This document shows positions 15,446 to 38,567 of a stretch of 64,000 bases of DNA, in pieces (position 1 is the first letter of the stretch; every line of letters begins with the position of its first letter). The translations under genes and the position numbers were made by a program. The DNA is from Candidatus Tenderia sp. (GTDB lineage: Bacteria; Pseudomonadota; Gammaproteobacteria; Tenderiales; Tenderiaceae), in contig JANOSY010000073.1 of assembly GCA_031416075.1 (NCBI GenBank), positions 3,822 to 67,821 on the forward strand, read 5' to 3'. Below the pieces are notes generated by a model that searched no databases, had not been told where the DNA came from, and saw only the letters and a list, made by a program, of their open reading frames with translations.

Positions 15446-15586
15446 AAGTTCGGCATTGCGGAGGGCGATGCACCGGCATGTGTGGCCTATTTTTCACCCC
15501 TCCACCCTTGCTATCACTCCTCCTCCATTTGCCATATGGCCTTTAATTATTCAGTTCGTGCCCCGATGTGCACGAAGGAGAGAGAT

Positions 15587-24500: not shown

Positions 24501-25037
24501 TTAGAACTGAAAAATCCCGTTCAGCGAGAACATGTCGATGTTGGTATCAGAGACATCCTGGTAACGATCCCAGCCGCCACGCACAGAGAAATTACTCCCC
24601 ATGATCACCTTCATACCCAAACCGATCGTCAGGCTGGTACCGCTATCACCTGTTGTCAGATTGTCATCCAGATCCCAGTTATAAAAGCCAAAACTACCAT
24701 AACCGTTCAAACCCTTACTGAGAAACAGCTCACCAATTGCGTTCAGCTGAACACCATCAACAGAGTAGTTGTTAATGCTGTTCTGTTTAAATCGACCAAG
24801 ATTGACGTAGGCCAACTCCATACCAAACCCTTCCGCATTGGCACCAACAAAAAACTTTGAGCTGCCTGCATTATCGTAACCACTACGATCAGTACTGGCA
24901 CTACCCAGGCCACCCCCCAGATAAACGGTTGGCTCGGCTGCGGCAACAGAAGCACCAACAGTAAATAGGGTTAATAGTAACGTGGACTTTAATGTTAGTT
25001 GTTTCACACACATCTCCTTCAGCACAATTTTAGCCAC
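24501..25037 (-). CDS. Small outer-membrane beta-barrel protein (OmpA-like N-terminal barrel / OmpW/opacity-type porin family).
   Basis: Signal peptide ...LLLTLFTVGASVAAA. Short alternating strands and C-terminal ...LNGIFQF. Confidence 0.6.
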   Translation of the reverse strand: MAKIVLKEMCVKQLTLKSTLLLTLFTVGASVAAAEPTVYLGGGLGSASTDRSGYDNAGSSKFFVGANAEGFGMELAYVNLGRFKQNSINNYSVDGVQLNAIGELFLSKGLNGYGSFGFYNWDLDDNLTTGDSGTSLTIGLGMKVIMGSNFSVRGGWDRYQDVSDTNIDMFSLNGIFQF

Positions 25038-25153: not shown

Positions 25154-26128
25154 CTACGAGGACACCTCAATAACACAGTTCCTACCACATTTTTTAGCCT
25201 TGTATAGCGCTTGATCGACACGTTCCATCAACAGAGAACCCACCTCACCATCTTCAGGAAAAGTAGCAACCCCCATGCTAACACTAACGCGCCCGAGTGG
25301 CTGTGCATCGCCTCCCTTGAAATCCGTAGACTCGATCAGCTTTCGTAAATTTTCCGCCACAATAATAGCGCCCTGCTTTGGGGTTTCCGGTAATAAAAGT
25401 ACAAACTCCTCACCTCCATAACGGCAAGCAAGATCTGCATGACGTAAACGTTCTTGCATCAACTGACTAAGATGTATCAACAGGGCATCTCCATCAGGAT
25501 GGCCGTGTGTATCATTGTATATTTTGAAGTTATCAACATCGATAAAAATCAATGAAAATTCTCGCTTATGGCGGAATGAACGAGCAACCTCCACTTCCAG
25601 GCTATCTTTAAAGTGACGATAGTTGTAAAGCCCCGTCAACCCATCACGAACTACCTTTTCACACAGCTCTACATTAAACTCAGAGAGTGCTTCGTTGTTA
25701 TTTTTAAGTTCCTGTAACAGCACCCGATTACCAACAAGCTCACTGCGTTTTTCCAACCCCCTCTTAACAACAGACGAGATATCCTCAAGTTCATTAAACG
25801 GTTTTACCAGATAATCAAAAGCTCCCTGCCGCAATGCAGAGACCGCCGATTCAAGTGAGGCATGGCTGGTAATAATAACGACCTGAACATCATCACTTAA
25901 CTCCCGGAGTCTATTCAGTAACTCAAGGCCGCTCATACCTTCCATCCGGACATCTGTAATAACCAAGGGAAAGGGTTCATTTATAAATAGAGCCATTGCC
26001 TCTTCGGCACTCTCTGCCGTGGTCACATCATAGTTATCATCCGTCAGAACCTCCGCAATCAGATTGCGTAGACTCATCTCATCATCCACCACTAAAATAC
26101 GGGACCCACAACTCATGATTAACCTCAA
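25154..26128 (-). CDS. Response regulator with a REC domain fused to a GGDEF diguanylate cyclase (PleD/WspR-like).
   Basis: REC: RILVVDDEMSLRNLIAEVL...ITDVRMEGMSG. GGDEF: GLTGLYNYRHF...RYGGEEFVLLLPET with an intact GGEEF active site. Confidence 0.85.
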   Translation of the reverse strand: MRLIMSCGSRILVVDDEMSLRNLIAEVLTDDNYDVTTAESAEEAMALFINEPFPLVITDVRMEGMSGLELLNRLRELSDDVQVVIITSHASLESAVSALRQGAFDYLVKPFNELEDISSVVKRGLEKRSELVGNRVLLQELKNNNEALSEFNVELCEKVVRDGLTGLYNYRHFKDSLEVEVARSFRHKREFSLIFIDVDNFKIYNDTHGHPDGDALLIHLSQLMQERLRHADLACRYGGEEFVLLLPETPKQGAIIVAENLRKLIESTDFKGGDAQPLGRVSVSMGVATFPEDGEVGSLLMERVDQALYKAKKCGRNCVIEVSS

Positions 26129-26219
26129 CGCATCTATCGTTTTTATTATAAAACTCTAATAAAAACAAATCCCCTCACCTACAAGGTTTTCGGCAACATC
26201 GGCAAAGCCTTAAGCCACA

Positions 26220-28061
26220 TTAAGCAGTAACACTCTCACCCAGATAAACAGACTGCTCATCATACGCTGGAAGAGTCACTATAAAAGCGGCCCCTTTACC
26301 GGGTTCACTCTCAATCTCCACCGTACCTTGATGATCTCTAATGATGCCAAACGTGACAGAAAGTCCCAACCCAGTCCCTTTGCCTGCTGCCTTAGTGGTG
26401 AAAAAAGGCTCAAACACACGTGCTTTCACCTCATCGGTCATGCCAGGCCCACTATCAGCGACACGGACTTCCACCCTACCTGAAACCAACAGACAACTGC
26501 TTATTCTCACTTCACCCGGCACACCATCCATAGCCTGTTGAGCGTTAATCATAAAGTTAATTAATGCCTGCTTTATCTGGTTACCATCGGCATAAATTTC
26601 CGGCACCTGATTATCCAGCACCTTCACTATTTTTACCTGATTAACACTTAACTGGTGATCGACTATGGCAATAGTCTCCTCAATAATCAGGTTAACATCG
26701 GTTGGTTCTTTCTTAACATCCTCTTTGCGAGCAAATTTCATCAAATTTTCGATAATATCTTTACAGCGTTTTGTCTCTTTTTCTATAACAACAAGGTTGT
26801 TATATACTGGGCCATCTTTTTCGACCTTACGCTTTGAAAGCTGTGCATAGCCAAGGATTCCCGCCAGTGGATTTTTTATTTCGTGGGCAATACCTGCCCC
26901 CAGCTGGCCAAAAGCGGCCATTTTTTCAGATTGAACAAGGGCAGATTGTGCCGATTCCAAAGCCACTTCACGACTATGCAACTCCGTCGTCATAGTATTA
27001 AATGAACTAGCCAGAGCACCTAATTCATCCCGTGACTCCACATCAAGTCGTATATCAAATCCACCTTGCCCAACTGCCTTGGCCGCTTCGGATAGTCGTT
27101 CAATCGGTCTGGTAATACGTTGTGCCCATATAATCCCTAACAACGCAGCAAGAATTAGCAGCCCTAACGCAACCCAAAGAAGGTTTCCCAGCAGTTCTCG
27201 TGCCGTCAGATATGCAGCACTTTTAGGCACTTGAACGCCCGCTATCAGCGAACCATGTTTGACACGGGCACGGGCATATCCGGCAACAACCGGCTCCCCT
27301 TTTACCACATACTCCACTATGGTGGCAGTACTCTGCATATCTGTCAGAACCTTCAGTTTTTCACGAGCCTCTAGTGGTATCCAATCTACTATAGTGTGTG
27401 CCACAATCAGATTCAGATCTTTATGTGCCAAAATGGAACCCTTATTATCCATTAAAAAAGTCTCAAAAACTGAAGATCGATTCACTACATTTAATAGCCT
27501 TTCCATGCGAACCATGGCAGAGACAATATGGGAATTACCCGTTTCAGGTGATTTTATTAATATGGCAATAGTTAATGTGGGTAGCGATTCATTTAGAGTC
27601 GAGTTAACTATGTAGCCCTCTTCATCAATAACCTTATCACCAGGCAAGGGGTTAGATTGACGATAATTGGATAATTCTTCTCTACTTAATCCAGCCTTTG
27701 TTAAAGAATCACTATCATAAATGGTTACCTGCTCTTTACCATTCTCATAAAGCGAAACTGAAACAAATTCCCCAATATCCTCAAATAGCCGCTGCAAAAG
27801 AATATTTTTCTCATTCTGTGGCAAACCAGAATCGATCATTATTCTTGAAAACAGACTCAACTTCTCTTCATACCCAAGATGCAAAGAGTAAGACTCTTCA
27901 GCTACATGCTGAGCAATAATAGAGGTCATATCATAAATGTAGGTTGTTTTATCAGTATGAAATAGGGCAGCCATCGTATACGTTATGATGCTCACAACCA
28001 GTGTAATCACTAGTAGCAATATACTCATCAATTTAAATCTGATGGGAAAACGTAAGTTCAC
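26220..28061 (-). CDS. Sensor histidine kinase with an N-terminal TM segment, a periplasmic Cache-like sensor, a second TM/HAMP region, HisKA and HATPase_c domains.
   Basis: H-box AGIAHEIKNPLAGILGYAQL and G-boxes DSGPGM / GKGTGLGLS. Two hydrophobic segments flank about 280 aa. Its start overlaps the FecR-like gene stop by 1 nt. Confidence 0.85.
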   Translation of the reverse strand: MNLRFPIRFKLMSILLLVITLVVSIITYTMAALFHTDKTTYIYDMTSIIAQHVAEESYSLHLGYEEKLSLFSRIMIDSGLPQNEKNILLQRLFEDIGEFVSVSLYENGKEQVTIYDSDSLTKAGLSREELSNYRQSNPLPGDKVIDEEGYIVNSTLNESLPTLTIAILIKSPETGNSHIVSAMVRMERLLNVVNRSSVFETFLMDNKGSILAHKDLNLIVAHTIVDWIPLEAREKLKVLTDMQSTATIVEYVVKGEPVVAGYARARVKHGSLIAGVQVPKSAAYLTARELLGNLLWVALGLLILAALLGIIWAQRITRPIERLSEAAKAVGQGGFDIRLDVESRDELGALASSFNTMTTELHSREVALESAQSALVQSEKMAAFGQLGAGIAHEIKNPLAGILGYAQLSKRKVEKDGPVYNNLVVIEKETKRCKDIIENLMKFARKEDVKKEPTDVNLIIEETIAIVDHQLSVNQVKIVKVLDNQVPEIYADGNQIKQALINFMINAQQAMDGVPGEVRISSCLLVSGRVEVRVADSGPGMTDEVKARVFEPFFTTKAAGKGTGLGLSVTFGIIRDHQGTVEIESEPGKGAAFIVTLPAYDEQSVYLGESVTA

Positions 28062-29353
28062 TAAAATTTTCCGTAAACCATTTTCGAATTATATGTTACG
28101 TTTCCGGCCATATCAACAGCTTCAACAACCAATATATTTATCCCCTGTTGCAATGTTAAAGCTTTAGAAAAAGTTCCATCACCTGCTATCGATATAGGTT
28201 CCCCTGTCACAAAAATATTGACACCAGGCTCACTTACACCCGTCAATATAAAATCAGAATTATTGATTATCTTATTAGGGAAATTAACCTTTAATAGTGG
28301 AGGAACTTTGTCCTGAATAACGCTTATTTGTCCAGTTTTACTATATGGTCCGTGCACCCATGAATGGGATGCATTAACTCGCCAGAAATAATCCCCTATG
28401 TATAAATTTCCCAAACTAAAATTGTTTGACATGACAACATCATCAACTATCAAAATATTAAAATCTTTATCTTTCGATATTTGGATACGATAATTATCTG
28501 ATTGTTTTACATTCTTCCATTTAAAATAAATTTTTGTGGGTAAGTCACGATAATAAAAAATGGATTTATGAGATGGGCTATCTAGTTTAACCTCTGGAGG
28601 TAACTCTTCTGAGTTCCGCATAGGAACACCGTCTTTCGCTGTTATGGACTGATTTTCAGTCACCACAACCCGCTGTCCCATAGAGGTGAATTCTGCTGTT
28701 CCAGAGTAGACAGTTAACGTTGATGATTTATCAGGATTCACTTTTATTGTAAATTCGGCCACTTCTCCCTCACCAGAAACGGCAGCCACTGCATTTGAGG
28801 TGGCCACTTCAACCCGCAATCCCTGTTTATTTGATCCGCTAATAGTGCCACTCAGCTCACCATCAACAACTATGATCTGAGAACGCCTCTCATTACGGAA
28901 CATACCCTTTTCCAGATGCTGAACGATAATCAGTGAATTTTCGCCAATAGAGAGGCGGTTACTTTTATCAAAAACAATATTTGCTCCTGATCCACGGAAA
29001 GTTTGTATTGCATCCTGATCAAACAGAGGAGTGCCTGAATCAACACTTTCCCATGCCATCCCACCAGCGGGTTTCCGTTTAACTGTCTGTTTTGTTCTAT
29101 CCAATACAGCCGTCAACCCCTTAATATCAAGCAGTCCTGCCTCATAGTCCCCCACACTGACAACCATATTGCGCTTTCCAACTTCATCTTTTTTATGGTC
29201 TTTGTTGAGAATTCCAATCAAACCACTACCAGTAGGAAAAACATTATTAATCAACATCATAATAATGCCAAATGCAATAAGGACCAAAATCAAGGCAATT
29301 AATACCTCGACTATACGAACAGATACAGACATTGAGTTTGTTTTTTCTGTCAC
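28061..29353 (-). CDS. Membrane-anchored FecR-domain protein with a C-terminal Ig-like region, a putative periplasmic signal-transducing or surface-associated partner.
   Basis: N-terminal TM VRIVEVLIALILVLIAFGIIMMLI, a central beta-rich region resembling FecR, and a C-terminal Ig-like stretch. Overlaps the histidine kinase start. Confidence 0.45.
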   Translation of the reverse strand: MTEKTNSMSVSVRIVEVLIALILVLIAFGIIMMLINNVFPTGSGLIGILNKDHKKDEVGKRNMVVSVGDYEAGLLDIKGLTAVLDRTKQTVKRKPAGGMAWESVDSGTPLFDQDAIQTFRGSGANIVFDKSNRLSIGENSLIIVQHLEKGMFRNERRSQIIVVDGELSGTISGSNKQGLRVEVATSNAVAAVSGEGEVAEFTIKVNPDKSSTLTVYSGTAEFTSMGQRVVVTENQSITAKDGVPMRNSEELPPEVKLDSPSHKSIFYYRDLPTKIYFKWKNVKQSDNYRIQISKDKDFNILIVDDVVMSNNFSLGNLYIGDYFWRVNASHSWVHGPYSKTGQISVIQDKVPPLLKVNFPNKIINNSDFILTGVSEPGVNIFVTGEPISIAGDGTFSKALTLQQGINILVVEAVDMAGNVTYNSKMVYGKF

Positions 29354-29641
29354 GGGTCATAGTTACAGCCCAATCATATATTCAGGCTGATCCCCCCTGT
29401 AAAATAGATAAAACCAATAAGAGCTTATGGTATGTATCGGCATTGGAAGGCCAGCCATGAACACAGGATTACAATAATTCACAACTAACTAAGTATGGAT
29501 GGAGTATTGTTTATAAAATAGTACGGATATTATGAATAGAAAATATTTAATCTTTAATAGCCAAAAACTTCACTGAAAAAATTATATTCTTAAATGCAAA
29601 TTAAGTCACCACCGGAAAATCCGGGGGACTGCCTTATTTAT

Positions 29642-32600
29642 TTAATACTTACCCTGAAGTCTCAAGAACCAGCCATAAACAGAGTAATCATTATCAGATC
29701 GTTCATTGTCTGAAAAGTCAGTAAAGTTAAATCCAACGCCCAGACGCACGTGTCGGTTTGCACGCCACATCAATTCTGTCAGCCAGCCATCACGCTGATC
29801 TTTTGCTTCGCGTTGTGACAGACTACGATATTCCATTCCAAGATCCCAATCAGTAATGAACTGATAATTCAGACGATGAATAGAGAGCCAAGTATGACTA
29901 GTAAATGGAGATTGTTCATTGTCATTCTGACTTTTACGTTTGTAAGCAAGTTTATCTACCCATTCAATATTTGGCGTTAACTCGTAGGACCATTCAGAAG
30001 AAAGTATTTCTACCTGTGATTCCTGATCATCCTGAACATGCAGTGTTAATGGTCGTTTATCATAAATACCAGTATAACGGGCCAACATATTAAACCGGTC
30101 ACTTTCTACCGGTCGATACGCAAAACCGATACTATGTTCATTAAGTTCAGATTCTGTTACACCCAGATTTAGATCCTTGGTTTGGCTAATCAAATATTTA
30201 AAAATAAACGTATAATCTGGATTAATTTTTAGTTCCAATAGAGTATTACTAAGATATTGAATGCGTTCTTTATCACCACTCTCACGTCTGATCTCATTTT
30301 TTGTTGAGCCGCTTAATCCTGACACACCTTTGTAACTTAAGCGGGTTGATAGTGTATAACGTTCACTGTCATTCAAGGCACCATTGATAACACCCTTCTC
30401 AACTGCCAGCTTCAGACGAAATCCTTGCTGTATATCCCAAAAGCGGTCTATTCCTACCATTGAGACCTGTCGATCACCAGCAGTGGAATTCTCAATCTGA
30501 TACTCACTATATATCCGGCTATTTTTAGCTAACTGATTCTCTCCACCTATAACTGTACTCAATGAGGATTGACCCAGTGTATTTTGGCGCATACGCTCAT
30601 CCAGATATATTCGCCCACCATCAAACAACCATTGCACTCCCACTTTTGCCGCTGTGCCTTGAGTTCCATTTGCGAGACGGCCAATCAACTCAGTTGATTG
30701 GCCTATTTTATAATCGGCACCGATAGTTGTCTGATCATCTTCATCGCCGGATAGTGTCTGCTGCTGTTCAATCTGTGTATCTAAACTATCGTTCACCTTA
30801 TATCGAAGTTGACCGCTTATATAATCGCCACTTGATACACTATCACCCACTGAGTTGACTGCATCGCGGTTTTGATACTCAGTACTGACTCCCCAGTCTT
30901 TAGCGTCATAACGCCACTGCAGAGAGAGTTTTTTTGTCTCTACAATAGAATTGGGATTTATTGTCGTTATTGAACTCTCCTCCATACTGCTGCTTGCCAA
31001 TAGTTTGCTCTGATTACTCAAGGTATACAGCATCGTTATCCCGATCTTACGTGTTCCTTTTTCAAGGAAATTACCACTAGATAGAAAACCTTCACCCAGT
31101 TGTTTAGCATAGCCATTTATCAACATGCGACCTGGATCATTCAGAAGCTTACCTATATCCAACTCCATGGCTGCTTTCCAAGCTTGGCCTTCCAAGGTTC
31201 CCGCAGGTGTCAGGTCATCAAAGCTTAAACCACCGTCTTGACTGTAATACGTATGGCTGGCAATGCCTCTGCTTTGCGCCAGCTCCGTCACTATTCTCAA
31301 ACCACGTCCAATATCTATTTCAGCATCTATTCCTGTAAGTTGATATTCACCATTATTGATCTCATCATTAATCTGTGTGATGCCCACTGCAACATTTTTA
31401 CCCAATGCCTTACTAGCCCGTACGCCGTAGGATTTTTTGTCAAAGCTGCTTAGATTTGTCTCATAGTCAACCGTTAATATTGTTGGATTTCCTGACAACA
31501 AAGAGCTATCAAATAGAGAGTGGCTATCCACCACGCTGGCAATAGGGTCGCTGGTGATCAACCGTCCTTGATCATAATAGATCCGATAATCAATATTTCT
31601 TTGCAAAGTTTTACGGCTCAATATCAAACCGGTATCACGATCTCTTACCACAATAGATACCTGCTCACTTCCTTCAATGATATCGCCGTGACTAAGGTAA
31701 TAGAGTGACCCACCTGTTCCATTTAATTCATCATGAATGGGGACCTGTTTTACTTCTGCCGCAAATATAATTGCCTGAGCATTAGGCCGCTCATTTATGT
31801 TTTTGGCTATTGAGGTATAAATGCCACGTATGCCATAAAGTGTACGCTGATAACTTGCTAGCTCTGTTTTATCAAAACCAATCGCATAGTTACCCACAAA
31901 AACACTCATTTCATCACTTGTTAATGCAAGATAGAACTTTCCTTGACTATTAATTTCATCTACCAAAGTGCTTGAATCACCATAAACAGGATAATATTTA
32001 TCAGGATCAAGATTGGTGAAAAGCCTTGAACTCTCCTGCTTGTCAATATTATTCATAAATGAATCATTATCACCGGTATCAAAAGATGAAGTGATCAGGT
32101 ATTTACCTTTAATCACGCCCTTTAAATAGTAAGCCACCCTCCCCTCACTATAAAATGAATTACTCTTTTGCAATCCGGATGCCTCAAGATAGCCACTACC
32201 TTTTAACTGCCCAAATTTCCCATCTGCAAAGGCCATAAAAAACATGCGATCATCGCTAATTTCAATGTTCCGCTCAATCACCCCGCTATAACCTTCCGGA
32301 TCAGTTACCTCAACCCGGACGCTATTTTCACCTTTAGGTAAAACCAGGTTTGCTACAAAGTGACCGTTAGGATCAACAGTAATACGTTCACCATTAATGG
32401 TTATCTTGTTAAGCGGATTGGTCACGCCCGAGACAGGCAGTTCAGGGACGGTTCTTAATACCCCCATCTGTGGTAACTTGACGGTTAGGCTTGGTATTGG
32501 GTCCACCAACAACATTAACTTACCATCAACATTTCGATCACTTAATGTGGCTTGTAAATCGGCAATGCGGCTATAACCTTGCGCATTGGTGACTATAACA

Positions 32601-35539
32601 GAAACGCTGTTCTTTCCTGAATGTAACATCAATGAATGATTGAAAACTCCATCATCGGTTATTGATACGCCGATACCATCTATTTCTAAACTATTTCCAG
32701 GGTCGGTACGACCACGTAATTCGTACGGCATTAAGAACCCATGTTGACTTTCACTATTAGTTCCCACTATTCCAACGTCATTATAGATTTCTGGATATGG
32801 AAGTGTCTCTTTACCCTTCATTGTATAAAATACTAATGATGGAATATTTACAATCGCTTTGAATTCACTACCACTACTGCTGACCATCTCCATAGTTAAC
32901 TGAGAGGTCTCTTCATAAGAGTAACTACGCTGAAAGCGTCCAAGGCCATCTAACGGCAACAACTCTCCATTTATTTTTACCTGTGGCATCGTTCTATATT
33001 GGTCATAAAGCTTAACATCAGACTCCGTGCTAAAATCACCCTTTATCTCAACACGACGGTTAATCTCCCTACCCATATCAGTATTATTACTAACAATTGG
33101 GCTGCTCTCACCAAACCAACGGATAATCAGCTGTTCACGAGGTACGCCTTCTATATCAACCAGGAAATGGGCGGCCGCTTCTGCACGCCGTTGTGACAGA
33201 ATCATGTTAACGTTATCATCCCCTCTATTATCACTATGCCCTTCTACTAACACCTGTTCACCTGGGAACTGTTTTAATACTTTGGCCGCACCAGATAATA
33301 TTTTCTTTGCATCGTCTGAAAGCTCTGTTGATCCTGTCTTAAATGCACCGCCAGACATATTGACAGATAATACTTCTGTACGATTAACTCCAAACAGCTG
33401 GCGAGATGTTTTAATACTCACTCCATCTGAATAGTTAATTAGAAGTTGATACTGGAATATTTTTCCGCCTTTAACAGTTTTTCCAGAATCATCTCGGCCA
33501 TTCCATTCTAATATACTGGGAAGAGGACCTCGCCCAGACAATGTATATACATGTTTTCCATCGGAATCATTAATGACAAAACTCCACGATTCAACTCTAT
33601 CATTATCATCAATTTGCACATTAAAAATGGCCGGCGTCTCAAGTTCTCCGCCCTTTATTTTGATTGTATTATCCATATTCAAACTATTCAAATTAACATT
33701 TGAATTAGAAAGATGTTTAACCGTACCATTGATGACTGCAAGCATAACTTCAGCATAGCCTTGTATCTGGATTGGCTTTTGGCTGCTATCACCCTCCATG
33801 GTGACTCCTTTTACTAAATCTCGGCCAATGCTATTTTTCTCAAATATATAACGTACACCAAAGTTCGCTTTTGCTAACAAACCTGGTGTTACCGAGACAA
33901 TTAGGGCCTCTTCCGTAGTAACTACAGCATTATCCGCCAAATGGGGTAAATTTATTTTTAGTAGTCGATGTCCAGGTGCTACGGCGGAAAAGTGGTAACG
34001 ACCATATTCATCAGTAAGAACATAGCTGCCATTATCAAGCACCACCATAGCACCACCAATACCAATCTCTCCCTTTGATTGATGGCCATCGCCATCATGA
34101 TCTCCAAATACTTTTCCAATGATAGTTCCAAGATCAAATATTGGGTCAATCACCACTTCAACTTTTGATTCAACCCTATTTGATATCAGGCAGCGATTAC
34201 ACACATCAATCGCATACGCGTTATTAATGTAATCACCTGGCTTTGCACCAGAACCTATAATAAGTTGATAACTCAACATCTGATAGCCAGATTCCCCTGC
34301 ATCAGCTTGACCATTACCATTTTTATCAGACAGTGCATCAATGTTACCAATTAAGAAATTAAGCTGATGTATCCCTGATGGATCTTGAGTTTGAATACCA
34401 TTTATTCGGCTGCTGCCGGGTAAATATTTAAAGTTTGGTGGGATACGGTCTAACAAAGAGACCTGCTCAATAGTTTTATCAGTACTATTTTTTATCTCCA
34501 CATAATAAGTCACCAGGTCTCCAATCATCGCCTTTTCTTTGTTTGCACGTTTAGTCAAACGTAATATTTCACCTTGGCTAAAATATATTAATGGACGTGA
34601 TAACAGATCAAATCCATCGTTTATATTAGTAGCTGATACAGTAGAAATACCTGGCTTATTTGAGTATATTTTTCCTATAGCGCTGCCATTGGTCAGAGTT
34701 ATACCTATAGGCTGCTCAATATTGTCAAAAACACCTCTATTAGTTGATAAAGCTATCTTTTTATCAGTGACTGGAGAACCATTTGAATCTAAAAGGGTGA
34801 CAGTTACTTGGCTGTTACTAATGCCGTCTGCAATGACAATATCGGGTACTACGACAATTGTAGAGAGCAAAGGATCCGCACTGGTGACAACAGCAACCTG
34901 ACGGCTATTATTATCCGTCACATCACCATCAGCACTTCCATCAACGCTTTCCATTGAGCTAATATCTGGTGTATTAACATCATCTACGTAACTAAAAAAT
35001 AATCCAACACCTGCCTCAAGCGGTGTATCAGCCTGTATTTCAGCACTAATTCTAGACTTGTCTACCATTACTTTGATGCCAAGATCAATAGTCAGCTTAG
35101 TTCCATCTGATATTGCACAGAATGTATTGGCAGAAACTGCGGGGCATGTTTGTGACCATAGATCTCCAGCTATAGAGAGCCAATTCAACGAGATATTTTT
35201 ATATCCTGATGGTGAAACTATAGTAATTCTATTTATTCCAGTATCATTAACTCCTATTGAAGGCAATAAATCATAGATAAAAACTTTTGATTTTATATTA
35301 GCAGGAACACTATTTGGATATATTTCAGCGTGAACGATAGTCGCAGCATTATTGCCACCAAGAACATCAAATGAAACCGTTGCTTGACTCAGGTCTAGCG
35401 GGTAACCATTAAATGTTCCTGTTACACCACTTTGAACAACTGCTGCCTGTGAAACACAGATAACAAGATTTGCCCATAGGAAAAATAACAGAGTTCCCAT
35501 GAGTATCTTTGACTTACTAAGCATGTGCCTTTTTAACAC
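29642..35539 (-). CDS. Giant (1,965 aa) secreted cell-envelope protein. It has a signal peptide, a Big_1 Ig-like domain, a DUF11 (conserved repeat) domain, a CarboxypepD_reg/Cna-B-like domain, an internal OmpA-type peptidoglycan-binding domain and a C-terminal beta-rich region of about 1,100 aa (putative outer-membrane barrel).
   Basis: Signal peptide MLKRHMLSKSKILMGTLLFFLWANLVICVSQA. Big_1-like ADGISNSQVTVTLLDSNGSPVTDKKIALSTNRG. DUF11 signature LTKRANKEKAMIGDLVTYYVEIKNSTDKTIEQVSLLDRIPPNFKY. Cna-B-like GTIIGKVFGDHDGDGHQSKGEIGIGGAMVVLDNGSYVLTDEYGRYHF. OmpA motif ...VLVEGHSDNRGDDNVNMILSQRRAEAAAHFLV...EINRRVEI. C-terminal ...YSVYGWFLRLQGKY with a terminal aromatic. Markedly AT-rich. Confidence 0.7.
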   Translation of the reverse strand: MLKRHMLSKSKILMGTLLFFLWANLVICVSQAAVVQSGVTGTFNGYPLDLSQATVSFDVLGGNNAATIVHAEIYPNSVPANIKSKVFIYDLLPSIGVNDTGINRITIVSPSGYKNISLNWLSIAGDLWSQTCPAVSANTFCAISDGTKLTIDLGIKVMVDKSRISAEIQADTPLEAGVGLFFSYVDDVNTPDISSMESVDGSADGDVTDNNSRQVAVVTSADPLLSTIVVVPDIVIADGISNSQVTVTLLDSNGSPVTDKKIALSTNRGVFDNIEQPIGITLTNGSAIGKIYSNKPGISTVSATNINDGFDLLSRPLIYFSQGEILRLTKRANKEKAMIGDLVTYYVEIKNSTDKTIEQVSLLDRIPPNFKYLPGSSRINGIQTQDPSGIHQLNFLIGNIDALSDKNGNGQADAGESGYQMLSYQLIIGSGAKPGDYINNAYAIDVCNRCLISNRVESKVEVVIDPIFDLGTIIGKVFGDHDGDGHQSKGEIGIGGAMVVLDNGSYVLTDEYGRYHFSAVAPGHRLLKINLPHLADNAVVTTEEALIVSVTPGLLAKANFGVRYIFEKNSIGRDLVKGVTMEGDSSQKPIQIQGYAEVMLAVINGTVKHLSNSNVNLNSLNMDNTIKIKGGELETPAIFNVQIDDNDRVESWSFVINDSDGKHVYTLSGRGPLPSILEWNGRDDSGKTVKGGKIFQYQLLINYSDGVSIKTSRQLFGVNRTEVLSVNMSGGAFKTGSTELSDDAKKILSGAAKVLKQFPGEQVLVEGHSDNRGDDNVNMILSQRRAEAAAHFLVDIEGVPREQLIIRWFGESSPIVSNNTDMGREINRRVEIKGDFSTESDVKLYDQYRTMPQVKINGELLPLDGLGRFQRSYSYEETSQLTMEMVSSSGSEFKAIVNIPSLVFYTMKGKETLPYPEIYNDVGIVGTNSESQHGFLMPYELRGRTDPGNSLEIDGIGVSITDDGVFNHSLMLHSGKNSVSVIVTNAQGYSRIADLQATLSDRNVDGKLMLLVDPIPSLTVKLPQMGVLRTVPELPVSGVTNPLNKITINGERITVDPNGHFVANLVLPKGENSVRVEVTDPEGYSGVIERNIEISDDRMFFMAFADGKFGQLKGSGYLEASGLQKSNSFYSEGRVAYYLKGVIKGKYLITSSFDTGDNDSFMNNIDKQESSRLFTNLDPDKYYPVYGDSSTLVDEINSQGKFYLALTSDEMSVFVGNYAIGFDKTELASYQRTLYGIRGIYTSIAKNINERPNAQAIIFAAEVKQVPIHDELNGTGGSLYYLSHGDIIEGSEQVSIVVRDRDTGLILSRKTLQRNIDYRIYYDQGRLITSDPIASVVDSHSLFDSSLLSGNPTILTVDYETNLSSFDKKSYGVRASKALGKNVAVGITQINDEINNGEYQLTGIDAEIDIGRGLRIVTELAQSRGIASHTYYSQDGGLSFDDLTPAGTLEGQAWKAAMELDIGKLLNDPGRMLINGYAKQLGEGFLSSGNFLEKGTRKIGITMLYTLSNQSKLLASSSMEESSITTINPNSIVETKKLSLQWRYDAKDWGVSTEYQNRDAVNSVGDSVSSGDYISGQLRYKVNDSLDTQIEQQQTLSGDEDDQTTIGADYKIGQSTELIGRLANGTQGTAAKVGVQWLFDGGRIYLDERMRQNTLGQSSLSTVIGGENQLAKNSRIYSEYQIENSTAGDRQVSMVGIDRFWDIQQGFRLKLAVEKGVINGALNDSERYTLSTRLSYKGVSGLSGSTKNEIRRESGDKERIQYLSNTLLELKINPDYTFIFKYLISQTKDLNLGVTESELNEHSIGFAYRPVESDRFNMLARYTGIYDKRPLTLHVQDDQESQVEILSSEWSYELTPNIEWVDKLAYKRKSQNDNEQSPFTSHTWLSIHRLNYQFITDWDLGMEYRSLSQREAKDQRDGWLTELMWRANRHVRLGVGFNFTDFSDNERSDNDYSVYGWFLRLQGKY

Positions 35540-35703
35540 TTTTAATGCGGACTATCTGTTTATCTGAGACTACCTTTAAACAACAAAATTCTGCCGCCTA
35601 TAAACGAACAAAATCAGCACAGGGCTGGTATTACAGTCCGGCTTGTTGTTCTCATCATCACGAGGATAATCTCAATAAAAACATTATTGCCCGACTCCAC
35701 CCG

Positions 35704-36315
35704 TCAATTAATACGCGCACGAAACATGAACGAAACAACTTTACCAGCAGGAATATTAACCACTCCATTGGTCTGCCCTGTATGCGCCCCCATGGTAATT
35801 AAATCAGGTGAGACCGCAACATTAGCAGAGGCCACATCCGCATTAATGGCATCACTCAAAGAAATTCCGCTACCACTTGCATTGGTATCGTTAAATATTG
35901 TGGCTAAAGATGCAGCGCTATTGGTAGTGTTGTTATTCCATGTTAAAGAGCCTGCTTGATAGGTAAAGTCCGTATCATTGAGTTGATCCTCAAGCCTGAC
36001 ATCAGATGATTGCGTACTAGTTGAGTTATCTATATAAATAATAAATTTTACGATACTGCCCTTTACAACGGAGCTGCCACTAACAATTTCCGTGCCCGTG
36101 TTATCATCCAGAAATGCTTTTTTTACTACGGCTAACGTAGCACTGGTAATTGTTAGCGTTGCAGAGTCTGTAATGTAATCGGTGTCTGACAATGTAGGGT
36201 CAGCGCCTAAATTAGCCCGCCCGATATTAGTCGCAGACCACGCTAATGAAGATGCTGAAAGCAAGTACAAAGAGAATATAGAGCAGACTAACTGTGTTTT
36301 TAAATTTGGTCTCAT
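35704..36315 (-). CDS. Small secreted DUF11-like protein, paralog 1. Putative surface/fibre subunit.
   Basis: Signal peptide MRPNLKTQLVCSIFSLYLLSASSLAWSA. Ser/Thr/Asn-rich. DUF11-like core VVKKAFLDDNTGTEIVSGSSVVKGSIVKFIIYIDNSTSTQSSDVRLEDQLNDTDFT. C-terminal FMFRARIN. Paralogous to the 36432..37067 product. Confidence 0.5.
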   Translation of the reverse strand: MRPNLKTQLVCSIFSLYLLSASSLAWSATNIGRANLGADPTLSDTDYITDSATLTITSATLAVVKKAFLDDNTGTEIVSGSSVVKGSIVKFIIYIDNSTSTQSSDVRLEDQLNDTDFTYQAGSLTWNNNTTNSAASLATIFNDTNASGSGISLSDAINADVASANVAVSPDLITMGAHTGQTNGVVNIPAGKVVSFMFRARIN

Positions 36316-36431
36316 AGGAAACCCCTTATACTTCTTTCAGAGAAAAAATCCTTCGTTCTCTGGCACTGTTAATATGTGTAAAAATCCATGTAATACACAA
36401 CAAACAACGTATTTAAATAGCTGTATTAAAC

Positions 36432-37067
36432 TTAATTCATTGTGACTCTGAAACGAACAGCAACTCGACGCGGGTCAACTACAGGGTCAGCTTGTGTTGA
36501 CTTCACTATATTAAGCACAGCATTACCACCACCAAGCCCCACGGTCACCTGATTGGCTGTTGAGACATTCCAGTTAAGTTGATCGGCATCAACAGCCGCC
36601 GTCATAGCATTCCATGTCAAACCATTCCATGTTCCCCCACCTGTTCCAGCAGTTGTCCACGCAGTGTCGTTGCCTGCTGTCATCTCTATTCCTGGTGATG
36701 CAACTGTGTTAAGAATTTCGAAACTGGTGGGTACAACAGTAAAGGCACCCGTATCGATAGCATCTATAAAACGCACATCACTAATATCCACAGATGAGCT
36801 GTTATCCACATAGAGTACAAAATAGAACTGCATCCCTGAAGGAATGCTGGCACTGGCACCTAGATTGTTACCATTAAGATTGCGCGCCTCTTTGGTAATT
36901 CCAAGCGCTGCTGCATTAATTGTGATAACCCCTGAATTAGTTAAACTAACCCCGCCCCCTCCTGGATAAGTGGCCTGATTGGTTGCGGCAAAGGCCGATG
37001 TCCCAAGAAGCATGGGTAAACTTGCTATGCCACTTAACCATAGTTTTCTACTTCCAACCCCGCTCAT
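36432..37067 (-). CDS. Small secreted DUF11-like protein, paralog 2. Putative surface/fibre subunit.
   Basis: Signal peptide ...LPMLLGTSAFAA. Core ITKEARNLNGNNLGASASIPSGMQFYFVLYVDNSSSVDISDVRFIDAIDTGAFT follows the same pattern as paralog 1 and as the DUF11 segment of the giant protein. C-terminal RFRVTMN. Confidence 0.5.
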   Translation of the reverse strand: MSGVGSRKLWLSGIASLPMLLGTSAFAATNQATYPGGGGVSLTNSGVITINAAALGITKEARNLNGNNLGASASIPSGMQFYFVLYVDNSSSVDISDVRFIDAIDTGAFTVVPTSFEILNTVASPGIEMTAGNDTAWTTAGTGGGTWNGLTWNAMTAAVDADQLNWNVSTANQVTVGLGGGNAVLNIVKSTQADPVVDPRRVAVRFRVTMN

Positions 37068-37379: not shown

Positions 37380-37406
37380 CTCCAGACCAATAGGATTGGT
37401 CTGGAG
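37380..37406 (-). terminator. Rho-independent terminator of the dsbA-like gene.
   Basis: Perfect 12-bp inverted repeat CTCCAGACCAAT-agg-ATTGGTCTGGAG immediately after the stop codon. On the transcribed strand it is followed by TTTATAAT. Confidence 0.6.
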
Positions 37407-37430: not shown

Positions 37431-38087
37431 TTAATAGTTCGCTTTAATCTCAGCATCAACCAAATTGACTAACTGCTCATAACCAAAGCTGGGAAGTGGT
37501 TTGCCGTTAACAAAGAACGTTGGAGTCTTGGTAGCTCCCAACAATTGACCATCACTAATATCCTGTCTAATTGCATTGGCTACTGCTTGGCTGTTCATAT
37601 CTTGTTGTAACTTAAAGAAGTCGATTGTAGTTTGCGTCCGGTTCAGATGGTTCCAAAATACTTCTGGCTGGGCGACATGATTGATTGTCCAATTGCGCTG
37701 AGTAGAAAACATTAGCTCCAGCACTGGCCAGAACTGCCCTTGCAGTTTGGCTGCTTCAAGAATAGCGACCATTTGGTCGGATCCTTGATGTAATGGTGCA
37801 TAACGAACCACTAGATTAACCTTGCCACTATGTTTTTCAAGCAGCTTTTTAACTAGCGGATGAAATTTTGCACAGGTTTCACAGGCTGGATCCATAAATT
37901 CAACTATGGTTACTTTGGCATTAGAGCTTCCTTCTCTGACTGAGTGGTCTCGTATCAATGACTCCCTGTTTTTTGTGGCTTGCTGTTCAGCTTTTTCACC
38001 TTGTTCTGAATTATACACAACGGCTACCAATGTAAAAGCAATGCCTATCAAAAGAATGGCGATGATCGTAAAGTGACTCTGTTTCAT
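37431..38087 (-). CDS. Thiol:disulfide interchange protein, DsbA/BdbD family (thioredoxin fold, CxxC).
   Basis: N-terminal membrane anchor/signal MKQSHFTIIAILLIGIAFTLVAVV. Active site FMDPACETCAKFHP (C-E-T-C). Confidence 0.75.
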   Translation of the reverse strand: MKQSHFTIIAILLIGIAFTLVAVVYNSEQGEKAEQQATKNRESLIRDHSVREGSSNAKVTIVEFMDPACETCAKFHPLVKKLLEKHSGKVNLVVRYAPLHQGSDQMVAILEAAKLQGQFWPVLELMFSTQRNWTINHVAQPEVFWNHLNRTQTTIDFFKLQQDMNSQAVANAIRQDISDGQLLGATKTPTFFVNGKPLPSFGYEQLVNLVDAEIKANY

Positions 38088-38126
38088 TATTGAAGTCCTA
38101 GCGAGTATGTGGTGATATTTTTACAA

Positions 38127-38567
38127 CTATAGCCGATTACTAAACGTACGTGTCTTTAACAACAAGGCTATTATGATGATAAACGATAACAATGACAGCA
38201 ATGGGATGGGTAAAAAACCAAATAATTCCATTGAGGCGTCGGCACAGGAGACTCCTTGACTACATGGTTGCATGTTTTCAGGAATGAATCCGTAAAACAG
38301 TAAACAATGGTAGAGGGTAAAGAGCAGTCCAATGACGGCTAGAGGTAACGCATAACGCACCACTTTAAGATCTAAAGGGTGCAGTCCTAATAGTAGAATA
38401 ATTGCCAGAGGGAACATAAATATTCGCTGGAACCAGCAAAGAATACAGGGCACAAGATCCATCACTTCGCTAAAAAAAAGACTTGCCACGGTAGATACCA
38501 TGGCAATCAGCCAAGCACTCGATAAATATGGCCAACCAGCCTGTTTCATACCTGACTTATCTGTCAT
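38127..38567 (-). CDS. Disulfide bond formation protein B, short BdbC-like form.
   Basis: 146-aa four-TM protein with the paired cysteine motif LVPCILCWFQRIFMFPLA. Adjacent to the DsbA-like gene. Confidence 0.7.
   Translation of the reverse strand: MTDKSGMKQAGWPYLSSAWLIAMVSTVASLFFSEVMDLVPCILCWFQRIFMFPLAIILLLGLHPLDLKVVRYALPLAVIGLLFTLYHCLLFYGFIPENMQPCSQGVSCADASMELFGFLPIPLLSLLSFIIIIALLLKTRTFSNRL

Follow-up and report, generated by a model that had tools for sequence, protein, structure and literature searches.

Six co-oriented genes were found on the minus strand between positions 25154 and 37067 of the window, a stretch of 64,000 nucleotides from a contig of Candidatus Tenderia sp. (Table 1), in agreement with an earlier note on this DNA, the ORFs lying at exactly the coordinates it had claimed. 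They encode two small secreted proteins (sp211 and sp203), a giant protein (identical to the recorded protein P0001), a FecR-like protein, a histidine kinase (HK) and a REC-GGDEF response regulator/diguanylate cyclase. The hairpin that follows the upstream dsbA-like gene is the 5' boundary of the transcription unit beginning with sp211. The downstream genes had been described as overlapping, which holds for the FecR-like and HK genes only, the start of HK overlapping the FecR-like stop by 1 nt; 288 nt separate the giant gene from the FecR-like gene, and 91 nt the HK gene from the cyclase gene. The promoter-like site in the longer gap could be a separate promoter of the signalling genes.

Table 1. 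Features of the locus. Coordinates are positions in the window; residues are numbered within each protein.
Feature	Coordinates	Strand	Description
Terminator-like hairpin	37380..37406	-	12-bp stem, after upstream dsbA-like gene
sp211	36432..37067	-	211 aa; small secreted subunit, clade A
sp211 signal peptide	36987..37067	-	residues 1-27
sp211 N-terminal extension	36909..36986	-	residues 28-53, ATNQATYPGGGGVSLTNSGVITINAA; class I
sp211 CLIPPER-like domain		-	residues 54-211
sp203	35704..36315	-	203 aa; small secreted subunit, clade B'
sp203 parts, in order		-	signal peptide, extension ATNIGRANLGADPTLSDTDYITDSATLTITS, CLIPPER-like domain
Giant protein	29642..35539	-	1,965 aa; signal peptide, N-terminal extension, stalk domains, OmpA, two Ig-like, barrel
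Giant N-terminal extension	35360..35443	-	residues 33-60, mature N-terminus, AVVQSGVTGTFNGYPLDLSQATVSFDVL; class II; class II extension HMM 48 bits
Giant N-terminal stalk domain	34880..35359	-	residues 61-220; no family assignment; ~1-5 copies in orthologs
Giant Big_1/Invasin_D3 Ig-like domain	34574..34879	-	residues 221-322; Pfam Big_1 44.1 bits, Invasin_D3 33 bits; matched span 223-305
Giant CLIPPER (DUF11) domain	34130..34573	-	residues 323-470; isopeptide triad K330/D364/N439, CNRC motif
Giant SdrD_B (CnaB-like) domain	33830..34129	-	residues 471-570; Pfam SdrD_B 33.2 bits; SdrD_B/CarboxypepD_reg span 476-538
Giant middle region	33365..33829	-	residues 571-725; weak FlgD_ig-like Ig domain (Pfam FlgD_ig E 7e-4, below cutoff)
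Giant OmpA-type peptidoglycan-binding domain	33035..33364	-	residues 726-835; Pfam OmpA 76 bits, span 733-828
Giant Glucodextran_B-type Ig-like domains (two)	32258..33034	-	residues 836-1094; Pfam 55 bits, 2 stretches, ending at residue 1090
Giant predicted outer-membrane beta-barrel region	29645..32257	-	residues 1095-1965; 871 aa, ~42 strands, undescribed family, end ...GWFLRLQGKY
Promoter-like site	29581..29609	-	GTGACT-17-TATAAT, in giant/FecR-like gap; consensus match only, such sites being rarer than in shuffled sequence
FecR-like protein	28061..29353	-	430 aa
FecR-like domains (Pfam)		-	N-terminal membrane anchor; FecR 114-220; Ig/Fn3-like region; Glucodextran_B Ig 352-426
Histidine kinase (HK)	26220..28061	-	613 aa
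HK domains (Pfam)		-	two transmembrane segments, periplasmic domain, HAMP, HisKA, HATPase_c
REC-GGDEF response regulator/diguanylate cyclase	25154..26128	-	324 aa
Cyclase domains (Pfam)		-	Response_reg 101 bits, GGDEF 152 bits

The two small proteins are paralogs, as had been claimed (34% identity over 71 aa, E 5e-10 in BLASTP); sp203 matched the HMM of the small-protein family with E 2e-52 and grouped with L002 9121-9747 in the domain tree. They had also been called DUF11-like, a likeness that is visible only at the profile and fold level, no Pfam or NCBIfam model being matched. The small proteins were shown to be remote CLIPPER-like, CnaA-type single domains keeping the Lys/Asp/Asn isopeptide triad. 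An N-terminal extension of ~25 residues lies between the signal peptide and the domain. In the AF2 monomer of sp211 it packs on its own domain with high confidence, and this predicted cis packing fits a closed self-complemented form and also a plain cis element. In the domain tree the small proteins split into distinct clades of ancient origin, and a locus has one to three of the genes, a pattern that fits ordered adaptor/cap subunits better than a polymerising major pilin.

The domains first read in the giant from the letters alone (Big_1, DUF11, SdrD_B/CarboxypepD_reg and a mid-protein OmpA domain) matched those found in Pfam/NCBIfam searches. Residues 61-220 matched no Pfam or NCBIfam model and are unrelated to the small-protein family (hhalign probability 0.9%). 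The DUF11 segment scored 39.2 bits with TIGR01451 of NCBIfam (cutoff 24) and, over residues 326-385, 24.3 bits with Pfam DUF11 (cutoff 24.6); the profile of the CLIPPER segment matched the CLIPPER structure 9IFR with E 6.5e-9, the Lys/Asp/Asn triad aligning with the 9IFR residues reported as K715, D748 and N806. The middle region is kept in orthologs, and the OmpA domain matched OmpA-family, YfiB, Pal and PomB structures in the PDB (E 4e-15 and weaker). The two Ig-like domains that follow matched residues 341-417 of the FecR-like protein (E 2e-5 and 1e-4, BLASTP), and are by sequence homologous to its C-terminal Ig domain. The part N-terminal to DUF11 has a length of ~930 to ~3,300 aa in orthologs, and some of its modules are repeated. 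Identity between the giant and its orthologs was highest in SdrD_B (65-85%), followed by DUF11 (52-70%) and the barrel (43-68%), and lowest in the N-terminal part (29-53%), which evolves fastest.

The C-terminal region had been taken for a barrel of about 1,100 residues. Its barrel-type nature is supported by fold matches and by an AF2 model (pLDDT 80.7, pTM 0.72, ~42-43 strands by DSSP on the model), which points to a very large all-beta protein; its length is ~870 aa, and it is separated from OmpA by the two Ig-like domains. The region has no matching model in Pfam or NCBIfam and no close relative in the PDB, where only generic large outer-membrane barrels match, among the weak fold matches being FimD and PapC. 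Relatives of the barrel are encoded in at least 574 species genomes. Those that stand alone fall into at least 1,978 clusters, and 'hypothetical protein' is the only name that NCBI gives to any of them. The barrel is unusually large, and its family is widespread and without description.

In related loci the barrel goes together with a CLIPPER(DUF11)/SdrD_B adhesin whose last domain is OmpA: the two are fused, or the barrel gene comes immediately after that of the adhesin. The fused form was found in 45 of the 80 loci and the split form in 12, the barrel ORF (1,208-1,256 aa) starting at -55 to +113 nt from the adhesin ORF, whose OmpA domain stands at its end. All nine split barrel ORFs whose N-termini were read have their own signal peptide. 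In Lysobacter antibioticus a CLIPPER/OmpA adhesin of 3,843 aa precedes a barrel of 1,231 aa. This comparison of ORFs shows that the window giant unites two units which other bacteria encode in separate, neighbouring genes. Since its N-terminal part is variable and fast-evolving, and since adhesin and barrel are split in 12 genomes, the giant seems to be the actual stalk of the fibre, with its barrel fused on.

All giant orthologs that were inspected begin, in their mature form, with an N-terminal extension. Some have the small-protein motif there (class I): the HMM of the small-protein extension matches giants P0010, P0014 and P0019 at this position, with E 5e-7 to 6e-6. The remaining giants, that of the window included, carry at the N-terminus a class II extension, whatever domain follows, and this is the positional homologue of class I. 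The class II extension of the window giant has no significant HMM similarity to any small-protein extension and is tied to these through its positional homology with the class I giants. The extension HMM matched 107 of the 121 stand-alone small proteins and 1 of the 45 large proteins that bear the domain at the C-terminus, with no other match among 5,016 locus ORFs. These large beta-helix/lectin proteins of other genomes, which also carry Beta_helix/NosD, Laminin_G_3 and SdrD_B domains, have the CLIPPER-like domain alone, at their extreme C-terminus and without extension; in about half of them the alignment starts at profile position 20-40, and some of the extension region may therefore be retained in cis.

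The class of the extension was shown to co-vary across loci with the acceptor clade, in counts that take no account of shared ancestry among the loci. A clade A small gene is present with all 11 class II-extension giants, and is missing with all five class I-extension giants, whose acceptors are only of clade C. In the clade A protein, the type of extension in turn tracks whether the acceptors present are of clade B or clade C. P0110 is a natural fusion of a clade B domain, a clade A-type extension and a clade A domain. Neither a large tip protein nor a clade C acceptor for the class I extension of sp211 is encoded in the window.

Among the signalling proteins, the FecR domain scored 28 bits against a Pfam cutoff of 24, and the cyclase has a GGEEF active site and an RxxD I-site. 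The kinase had been called Cache-type; it was confirmed as a histidine kinase by its HAMP, HisKA and HATPase_c domains, but the Cache call for its periplasmic domain is weak (dCache_1 18 bits, cutoff 45). A FecR-like gene comes straight after the giant in 24 related loci, from Nitrospirota, Gammaproteobacteria, Acidobacteriota and Desulfobacterales, usually accompanied by HK and GGDEF genes, and the order giant, FecR-like, HK, REC-GGDEF was found in nearly all close orthologs; the downstream FecR-like and HK genes are absent from the close orthologous loci L002, L004 and L006. The synteny search named in the earlier note found the gene set conserved together across phyla. That note had held that a separate signalling transcript with unrelated homologue contexts would count against one system. 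The 288-nt gap and its promoter-like site indicate that transcription of the signalling genes may be separate, from a promoter of their own, yet their linkage to the giant is conserved.

We propose that the locus encodes a modular fibre on the cell surface (a fibrillar adhesin), anchored in outer membrane and peptidoglycan and served by a c-di-GMP signalling arm of its own, a reading to which we give a probability of about 0.45. No published description of such a system was found, in agreement with the earlier impression that the architecture is undescribed. The synteny is strongly conserved, and we infer the following mechanism of assembly. The stalk would run through the lumen of the barrel; the variable N-terminal part would be extracellular, and OmpA would fix the base of the fibre to the cell wall. 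Subunits would be joined head to tail, the extension of one protein being inserted as a strand into the next CLIPPER-like domain, and neither a chaperone nor a sortase would be required; Pfam/NCBIfam searches of the locus found no known chaperone or secretion ATPase, as had been claimed, and no known usher. The chain in the window would run from the giant to sp211 and possibly to sp203, the latter step being the weakest because the window has no acceptor clade that pairs with the extension class of sp211; elsewhere, a large tip protein would end the chain. The membrane-anchored FecR-like protein, with an Ig domain common to the base of the giant, may report the state of the envelope-spanning protein to the HK, which would activate the REC-GGDEF cyclase and thereby c-di-GMP production.

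Instead, the extension could be a signal for export across the outer membrane, of the kind formed by the N-terminal 22 residues in curli CsgA; it would guide the passenger of the giant, and likewise the small proteins, through the barrel, and the small proteins would form an unattached secreted matrix or coat. Such a signal would account for an extension found solely at free mature N-termini (those 107 small proteins, all giants and none elsewhere among the locus ORFs), and every component has a Sec signal peptide and no other known outer-membrane route. We consider it unlikely, since it leaves unexplained the export and locus linkage of the large proteins that have only the C-terminal CLIPPER-like domain, the co-variation of extension class and acceptor clade, the class I extension on giants exactly when clade A is absent, and the P0110 fusion, where the extension is inside a protein. 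A model along the lines of the earlier note has small proteins that polymerise like pilins, with the giant as an usher-like assembly/anchor platform whose Ig-like N-terminal part is periplasmic. Chaperone-usher logic is indeed mirrored by small Ig-like subunits that have N-terminal extensions and by tip-like proteins whose C-terminus carries a subunit domain, Ig-like domains adjoin the barrel, and the fold matches to FimD and PapC point the same way. We rate this somewhat lower still, and the giant is probably not mainly such a platform: no PapD-like chaperone or Usher family was matched in Pfam/NCBIfam, an N-terminal part of this length, variability and adhesin-type repeat content does not suit the periplasm, and OmpA-terminated adhesins with a separate barrel (the split form of the 12 genomes) occur without any small genes. 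Moreover, the small-protein clades, with one member each per locus, offer no obvious single major subunit, and the giant bears an N-terminal extension as a fibre component would.

Two further explanations dispense with a fibre. The giant might serve mainly as a structural connection of the outer membrane to peptidoglycan, or as a large channel, in the manner of Deinococcus SlpA or Negativicutes OmpM, with the small proteins and two-component genes as envelope accessories; this is very improbable given the consistent coupling of the barrel, fused or adjacent, to CLIPPER/SdrD_B/cadherin-type adhesin stalks, the small-protein module in lectin/beta-helix tip proteins and the variable N-terminal repeats. 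That the genes are unrelated neighbours gathered in an AT-rich island, as the deviating composition of the block and the promoter-like site before the FecR-like gene might suggest, is scarcely credible: the gene order recurs in more than 20 loci of at least four phyla, and the extension is a sequence module common to the giant and the small proteins, as the Ig domain is to the giant and the FecR-like protein. The conserved synteny largely refutes it.

The block had been described as AT-rich, consistent with horizontal acquisition. It has a GC content of 38-47%, against 52-60% in the flanks, and a GC3 of 0.32-0.43 against 0.50-0.53; per-kilobase GC was 0.37-0.44 over 25-39 kb and 0.50-0.63 in the cob genes and the downstream flank. 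No tRNA, integrase or flanking repeat was found at the block, and composition, the sole basis for horizontal acquisition, may suggest it. The window is likewise AT-rich over 1-15 kb, so that the block is not its sole low-GC stretch.

The six co-oriented genes that the earlier note had placed at 25154-37067 were recovered there as six minus-strand open reading frames (ORFs) lying head-to-tail, with intergenic distances, in order, of 116, 164, 288, -1 (a 1-nt overlap) and 91 nt. The cluster encodes two small secreted proteins (sp211 and sp203), a giant protein, a FecR-like protein, a histidine kinase (HK) and a REC-GGDEF protein.

Coordinates of the cluster and its signals, of the domains of the giant protein and of the split-form genes of Lysobacter antibioticus 76
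Feature	Position	Strand	Length	Remarks
sp211	36432-37067	minus	211 aa	
sp203	35704-36315	minus	203 aa	
giant	29642-35539	minus	1,965 aa	
FecR-like	28061-29353	minus	430 aa	
HK	26220-28061	minus	613 aa	
REC-GGDEF	25154-26128	minus	324 aa	
Terminator-like hairpin	37406-37380		12-bp stem	between upstream dsbA/dsbB-like pair and cluster
Promoter-like site	288-nt gap upstream of FecR-like gene			GTGACT-17-TATAAT
Big_1/Invasin_D3	giant residues 223-305			Pfam/NCBIfam
SdrD_B	giant residues 476-532			
FlgD_ig	giant residues 638-693			weak match
OmpA (PF00691)	giant residues 733-828			76 bits; Pfam cutoff 27.2
Two Glucodextran_B-type Ig domains	giant, end at residue 1090			
L. antibioticus 76 adhesin			3,843 aa	SpaA_2, CLIPPER_2, CLIPPER, OmpA
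L. antibioticus 76 barrel LA76x_0950	12 nt downstream of adhesin		1,231 aa	
L. antibioticus 76 third gene			1,143 aa	CshA_NR2, GEVED, CLIPPER

The GC content of the cluster was 0.38-0.47 per gene (GC3 0.32-0.43), compared with 0.54-0.56 (GC3 0.50-0.53) in the cob genes on one flank and up to 0.52-0.63 on the other; window positions 1-15 kb were AT-rich as well. Orthologous clusters in other genomes were not AT-rich relative to their own flanks. No tRNA, convincing flanking repeat, mobility gene or tandem repeat was found at the cluster borders. The low GC relative to the flanks, which the earlier note had found consistent with horizontal acquisition, is borne out, and judged by composition a recent gain from a lower-GC donor is plausible.

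Searches of Pfam (2025) and NCBIfam (June 2026) confirmed most of the domains previously assigned to the giant by eye. Its DUF11 segment (residues 326-385) was matched by TIGR01451 with 39.2 bits (cutoff 24) and fell just under the cutoff of Pfam DUF11 (24.3 against 24.6 bits). The OmpA domain, the only part of the giant to find a match in a PDB sequence search, matched OmpA-family proteins, YfiB and Pal. Three pieces had no Pfam or NCBIfam family: the small proteins, residues 61-220 and the last 871 residues of the giant. With lax thresholds, the same databases gave only a sub-threshold Porin_4 match for the small proteins, the N-terminal domain of the giant and the barrel region. Residues 61-220 were also considered as a paralog of the small proteins, and this was rejected (best BLAST E 0.12; hhalign probability 0.9%).

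The preprint in which DUF11 was renamed CLIPPER describes B9T28_05395 of Acinetobacter silvestris as a fibrillar adhesin with an "OmpA-like anchoring domain", and reports that the CLIPPER domain (PDB 9IFR) contains a Lys715-Asn806 isopeptide bond catalysed by Asp748 (bioRxiv 10.1101/2025.04.25.650565). The DUF11 segment of the giant did not match the PDB as a single sequence; a profile built from it retrieved 9IFR (E 6.5e-9), with K330, D364 and N439, near-invariant in 44 sequences, falling on the triad positions. This alignment indicates that the giant carries the conserved Lys/Asp/Asn triad residues of a CLIPPER domain, with a putative isopeptide bond.

The paralogs sp211 and sp203 had no direct CLIPPER/DUF11 match in Pfam or NCBIfam, and a PDB search with the profile of their family gave no match of any kind. 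When this profile was compared by hhalign with the CLIPPER segment of the giant, the two were related with a probability of 92-95% (E 5e-7 to 4e-8, 59 columns), so that their description as DUF11-like is correct in the sense of remote homology. Among 97 aligned members K59, N89 and D102 were invariant, and aligned with the Lys, Asn and Asp of CLIPPER, and N30 and N182 were conserved in at least 90%. By analogy, an intramolecular K59-N182 isopeptide bond is predicted in the small proteins. A search of 1.84 billion representative proteins with the family profile returned 473 clusters (E ≤ 0.001). Some are stand-alone proteins of about 200 aa; the others are 400-2,900 aa long and have the domain at the extreme C-terminus.

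The C-terminal region of the giant (residues 1095-1965, 871 aa) was modelled with AF2 from a 38-sequence alignment. The model was all-beta, with a mean pLDDT of 80.7, a pTM of 0.72 and about 42-43 strands, in agreement with the barrel proposed in the earlier note. Its strands formed an antiparallel meander with turns mostly of 2-5 residues, its last residue was aromatic, and its fold resembled those of solved outer-membrane barrels. On this model the region is a very large predicted outer-membrane barrel of an undescribed and widespread family.

A pattern scan of one genome per species, for which part of the most conserved motif of the family (DPDKYYPVYGDSS) served as the pattern, revealed at least 574 loci encoding a barrel relative. 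Of these loci, 80 were kept for comparison; the highest identity, 72% over the first 238 query residues, was that of a locus in a Candidatus Tenderia MAG. For a stand-alone barrel of Halopseudomonas pelagia, the homologues with E ≤ 1e-20 made up at least 1,978 clusters; in the 120 best of these, each protein named by NCBI was a "hypothetical protein" and none was from Acinetobacter. Carriers of the family included culturable Lysobacter, Stenotrophomonas, Halopseudomonas and Kangiella. The motif DPDKYYPVYGDSS itself (window about 31967-32008, giant residues about 1178-1191) falls within model residues 63-104, the one extended part of the model where confidence is low (pLDDT below 50), and could represent a functional loop or a contact with a plug. 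Since several MAGs contained two separate barrel-family loci (L009/L011, L007/L027, L015/L019 and L047/L063), the family can be multi-copy per genome. Omnitrophota (loci L045, L059, L065, L074 and others) have a shorter fused form of about 1,560 aa with SdrD_B, Ig domains and the barrel, in a conserved housekeeping neighbourhood (dapF, dapA, dapB, uvrA) that suggests a constitutive envelope role.

The distant relatives matched the giant in two pieces, namely its barrel and its CLIPPER-SdrD_B pair. Both were in one ORF in 45 of the 80 kept loci; in 12 others an adhesin ORF (up to about 3,000 aa) was followed, at a spacing of -55 to +113 nt, by a barrel ORF of 1,208-1,256 aa. All nine split barrel ORFs whose N-termini were read had their own signal peptide, and three of the four split adhesins checked ended in an OmpA domain preceded by CLIPPER. 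These arrangements indicate that in the giant an adhesin and its barrel are combined in one polypeptide. The split form is present in the culturable organism Lysobacter antibioticus 76 (locus L087, CP011129.1 1098505-1122200), which would be a handy experimental entry point.

Among orthologs of the giant the part from CLIPPER through the barrel was constant. The part N-terminal to CLIPPER ranged from about 930 to 3,300 aa with repeated modules and was the least conserved (29-53% identity, against 65-85% for SdrD_B and 52-70% for CLIPPER); the number of these repeats had no visible relation to the number of small genes. A peptidoglycan-binding domain is necessarily periplasmic, and exposed stalks are typically long, variable and fast-evolving repeat regions. 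For these reasons the simplest topology is one in which the stalk would lie outside the cell and the chain would cross the barrel lumen once, between SdrD_B and OmpA, leaving OmpA and the two Ig domains in the periplasm to lead into the first barrel strand. The earlier note had regarded the giant as an assembly platform for a pilus of the small subunits; we consider that it is better seen as a fibre plus its anchor.

How the small proteins might join this fibre was suggested by an N-terminal extension of about 25 residues, located right behind the signal peptide (typically A|ATNxATDPGGGGxxLxxSGxVTV) and followed by the CLIPPER-like domain, which begins at LxLVK. An HMM of the extension matched 107 of 121 stand-alone small proteins and one of 45 large proteins with a C-terminal domain, the latter being a tandem fusion whose own N-terminus bears the extension. 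Outside the small proteins and the giants, no further match was obtained in the 5,016 ORFs of the related loci. The mature N-terminus of three giants (P0010, P0014 and P0019) was matched with E 5e-7 to 6e-6, and this motif (class I) was seen by eye in three more (P0025, P0031 and P0032). The giant of the window (AVVQSGVTGTFNGYPLDLSQATVSFDV) and all remaining giants carried a positional variant (class II), highly conserved (23-55 bits) and always at the mature N-terminus, the next domain being the N-terminal module or Big_1; the class II HMM had no match at E < 0.01 in the small proteins. Large proteins without the extension had Beta_helix/NosD (some with a CSLREA-type start), Laminin_G_3 or SdrD_B domains. 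Since the extension is present on small proteins and giants, and the large proteins have the C-terminal domain without it, the proteins thus appear to form three classes: acceptor only (the large tip proteins), donor and acceptor (the small proteins) and donor only (the giant), the donor being the extension and the acceptor a CLIPPER-like domain proposed to take up its strand.

A tree of the CLIPPER-like domains gave three groups. Clade A comprised sp211 and, in most loci, the product of the gene adjoining the giant; clade B took in C-terminal domains of large proteins from the same loci and had a sister group to which sp203 belongs; clade C also had large proteins of its own. Counted without regard to shared ancestry, a clade A small gene accompanied class II giants in 11 of 11 loci, and clade A was absent from all five loci with class I giants (L004 and L083-L086), where the small and large proteins were of clade C only. 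The extension of clade A proteins was of class I alongside clade C acceptors and of a third type alongside clade B acceptors. In loci without clade A, the extension that a clade A protein would have offered to clade C is thus found on the giant instead. Behind its single signal peptide, the metagenomic protein P0110 (367 aa) has a domain of clade B, immediately after which come an extension of the clade A type and a domain of clade A. By its domain order it is a natural tandem fusion of two small subunits, with a layout like that of engineered donor-strand-complemented pilins.

The co-variation across loci, uncorrected for ancestry, is compatible with a lock-and-key chain in the order tip, then B or C, then A, then giant. 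Together with the extension pattern and the acceptor-only tips it fits putative donor-strand joining through the extension. In the window, which lacks both a large tip protein and a clade C acceptor, the chain would run from the giant to sp211 and then possibly to sp203, the sp203 step being the weakest.

The FecR-like protein has about 14 residues ahead of its membrane anchor and a FecR domain (28 bits, cutoff 24), the only part of a FecR-type transducer that was matched. At its C-terminus is a Glucodextran_B Ig domain, to which both Ig domains of the giant are homologous (E 2e-5). No sigma factor gene was found in the locus, and the complete FecR-type set of cytoplasmic anti-sigma domain, ECF sigma factor and TonB-dependent transducer was not found. 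The HK has HAMP, HisKA and HATPase_c domains and a periplasmic domain with only a weak dCache_1 match. The last protein contains Response_reg (100.7 bits) and GGDEF (152.1 bits) domains, GGEEF and an RxxD I-site, and RHADLACRYGGEEF is visible in the translation; all features of a PleD/WspR-type REC-GGDEF diguanylate cyclase are present, and its activity is predicted from them.

A FecR-like gene followed the giant in 24 related loci from Nitrospirota, Gammaproteobacteria (Woeseiaceae, Acidiferrobacterales and the window organism), Acidobacteriota and Desulfobacterales, usually with an HK gene and one to three REC-GGDEF genes. Both the conserved gene order and the c-di-GMP link anticipated in the earlier note were therefore seen in several phyla. 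Exceptions among close orthologs were L002, L004 and L006, and none of the distant barrel loci without OmpA had a FecR-like gene or small genes. Entirely by analogy with FecA-FecR and YfiB-YfiR-YfiN, we infer that the FecR-like protein might contact the periplasmic base of the giant and modulate the HK; the contact is proposed because of the Ig domain in common, the membrane anchor and the 1-nt overlap with the HK gene. In two loci a REC-GAF-HD/HD_5 protein is encoded between the tip-protein and small-subunit genes (L083 7472-9043, L084 7604-9130). It may be an HD-GYP-type c-di-GMP phosphodiesterase, which would provide a degradative arm beside the downstream cyclases.

When compared with known systems, the cluster was closest in parts to several of them. 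Like B9T28_05395, the giant combines a CnaA-like CLIPPER domain bearing the Lys-Asn-Asp triad with an Ig-like repeat stalk and a basal OmpA-type domain, and its split relatives have CLIPPER/CLIPPER_2 repeats, a C-terminal OmpA domain and a neighbour gene with CshA_NR2 and GEVED; unlike B9T28_05395, it continues into a fused barrel some 870 aa long, which places OmpA in mid-protein. The available text on B9T28_05395 makes no mention of a barrel partner, small single-domain subunits, an N-terminal extension or signalling genes (bioRxiv 10.1101/2025.04.25.650565). Type V systems (Va, Vb and the intimin/invasin type Ve) also combine passenger and barrel in one polypeptide, with split two-gene versions elsewhere, a Big_1/Invasin_D3 stalk and a peptidoglycan-binding domain beside the barrel (LysM in intimin, OmpA here). 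The topology proposed for the giant would be that of a classical autotransporter with periplasmic domains inserted ahead of the barrel, whereas the domain order of intimin is different. However, type V barrels have 12-16 strands, against about 42 in some 870 aa here, and no match to the Autotransporter, IAT_beta, ShlB/Omp85 or POTRA families was found; the cluster does not qualify as a type V system.

Chaperone-usher pili (Fim, Pap) likewise have small Ig-like subunits with an N-terminal extension, tip proteins with a C-terminal subunit domain and no extension, an outer-membrane barrel at the base and an ordered head-to-tail chain, as is implied here. Their barrel has 24 strands, whereas that of the giant has about 42 and is fused to the stalk, and their pilin folds are incomplete, whereas the small proteins have complete CnaA-type folds with the isopeptide triad and a strand exchange that is putative. 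No PapD-type chaperone, Usher, PapC_N or PapC_C family was matched, and the cluster does not belong to this group. Type IX secretion resembles it in the very large single-chain outer-membrane barrel (SprA, 36 strands) and in diverse large proteins with a common beta-sandwich domain at the extreme C-terminus. The window proteins included no T9SS component and had no match to SprA, or to Por_Secre_tail/CHU_C at threshold; the barrel model was only weakly similar to SprA in Foldseek (TM ≤ 0.25), and we know of no N-terminal extension logic in T9SS; the cluster falls outside this group as well. Sortase pili and isopeptide adhesins (BcpA, RrgB, AgI/II, PrgB) differ in that here there is neither sortase nor LPXTG, and anchoring, in a diderm organism, is by an outer-membrane barrel. 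The signalling arm, judged from the genes alone, would be like FecA-FecR, YfiBNR and Wsp/WspR in that a component located in the outer membrane or bound to peptidoglycan is linked to a partner in the periplasm or the inner membrane; YfiBNR and Wsp also act through a GGDEF cyclase, and the OmpA domain of the giant resembles YfiB. It differs from FecA-FecR in that the FecR-like protein lacks the cytoplasmic anti-sigma part and there is no ECF sigma factor, and from all three in an output through a classical HK and REC-GGDEF pair.

The cluster is a real, conserved system, and we regard it as a variant of the outer-membrane-anchored fibrillar adhesin, itself a known kind. By analogy, it would work like a hybrid of a self-anchored adhesin (type V, OmpA-anchored CLIPPER) with the extension logic of chaperone-usher pili, its subunits probably having the fold and the isopeptide chemistry of Gram-positive pilins. 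No published description was found of the gene set or of either protein family, barrel or small proteins, in keeping with the initial impression that this is not a described system. More tentatively, with a probability of about 0.3, the barrel family and the extension-mediated assembly constitute an undescribed pathway for display and assembly of surface fibres in diderms. In such a pathway a pore of about 42 strands would pass and hold an isopeptide-stabilised adhesin stalk whose base is bound to peptidoglycan, with or without small extension-bearing CLIPPER-like subunits. The fibre would be lengthened outside the cell by insertion of N-terminal strands into CnaA-type domains, free of chaperone and sortase, and the FecR-like/HK/GGDEF relay would turn its mechanical or assembly state into c-di-GMP.

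Gram-negative CLIPPER/DUF11 adhesins with an OmpA-like base have been recognized only recently, and how they cross or stay in the outer membrane is not stated in the preprint on B9T28_05395 (bioRxiv 10.1101/2025.04.25.650565). The locus and its relatives in hundreds of species point to a dedicated partner of the adhesin, a very large barrel either fused to it or encoded right behind it, and the pathway, if true, would also account for the outer-membrane crossing of those adhesins. A common N-terminal peptide appears to connect the small subunits and the tip proteins; if so, this would be a new means of building heteromeric fibres on the surface of diderms, and self-assembling protein parts might be derived from it. 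Because the connection with c-di-GMP synthesis is conserved, surface sensing by the giant adhesin is directly testable.

Several other genes were noted in the window. Just upstream of sp211, in the same AT-rich block and set off by the strong terminator-like hairpin, are genes for a DsbA-like thioredoxin (218 aa) and a DsbB-like protein (146 aa) at 37431-38567 (minus strand), a pair not seen beside the cluster in the other genomes inspected. The gene that comes next after the GGDEF gene, at 24501-25037 (also minus strand), encodes a 178-aa small barrel protein (OmpA_membrane/OMP_b-brl) with an intermediate GC of 0.46, not conserved among the other loci inspected. A 665-aa ORF (15419-17416) and the cob-type genes flanking the cluster are immediately preceded by a cobalamin riboswitch (15232-15454, plus strand; Rfam RF00174, 103.6 bits). 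Within the AT-rich first 15 kb, an NAD_binding_4 ("male sterility") reductase-like gene and an Ald_deCOase match are located at 11230-12432 and 13851-14702 (both minus). Ald_deCOase is the long-chain fatty aldehyde decarbonylase family, and the pair is reminiscent of cyanobacterial alkane synthesis. Genes for DUF1302-like, LolA_like/DUF1329-like, MacB/FtsX-type permease and ABC ATPase proteins at 2682-7650 (minus; GC 36-46%) form a second low-GC region of the window, unconnected with the six-gene cluster.
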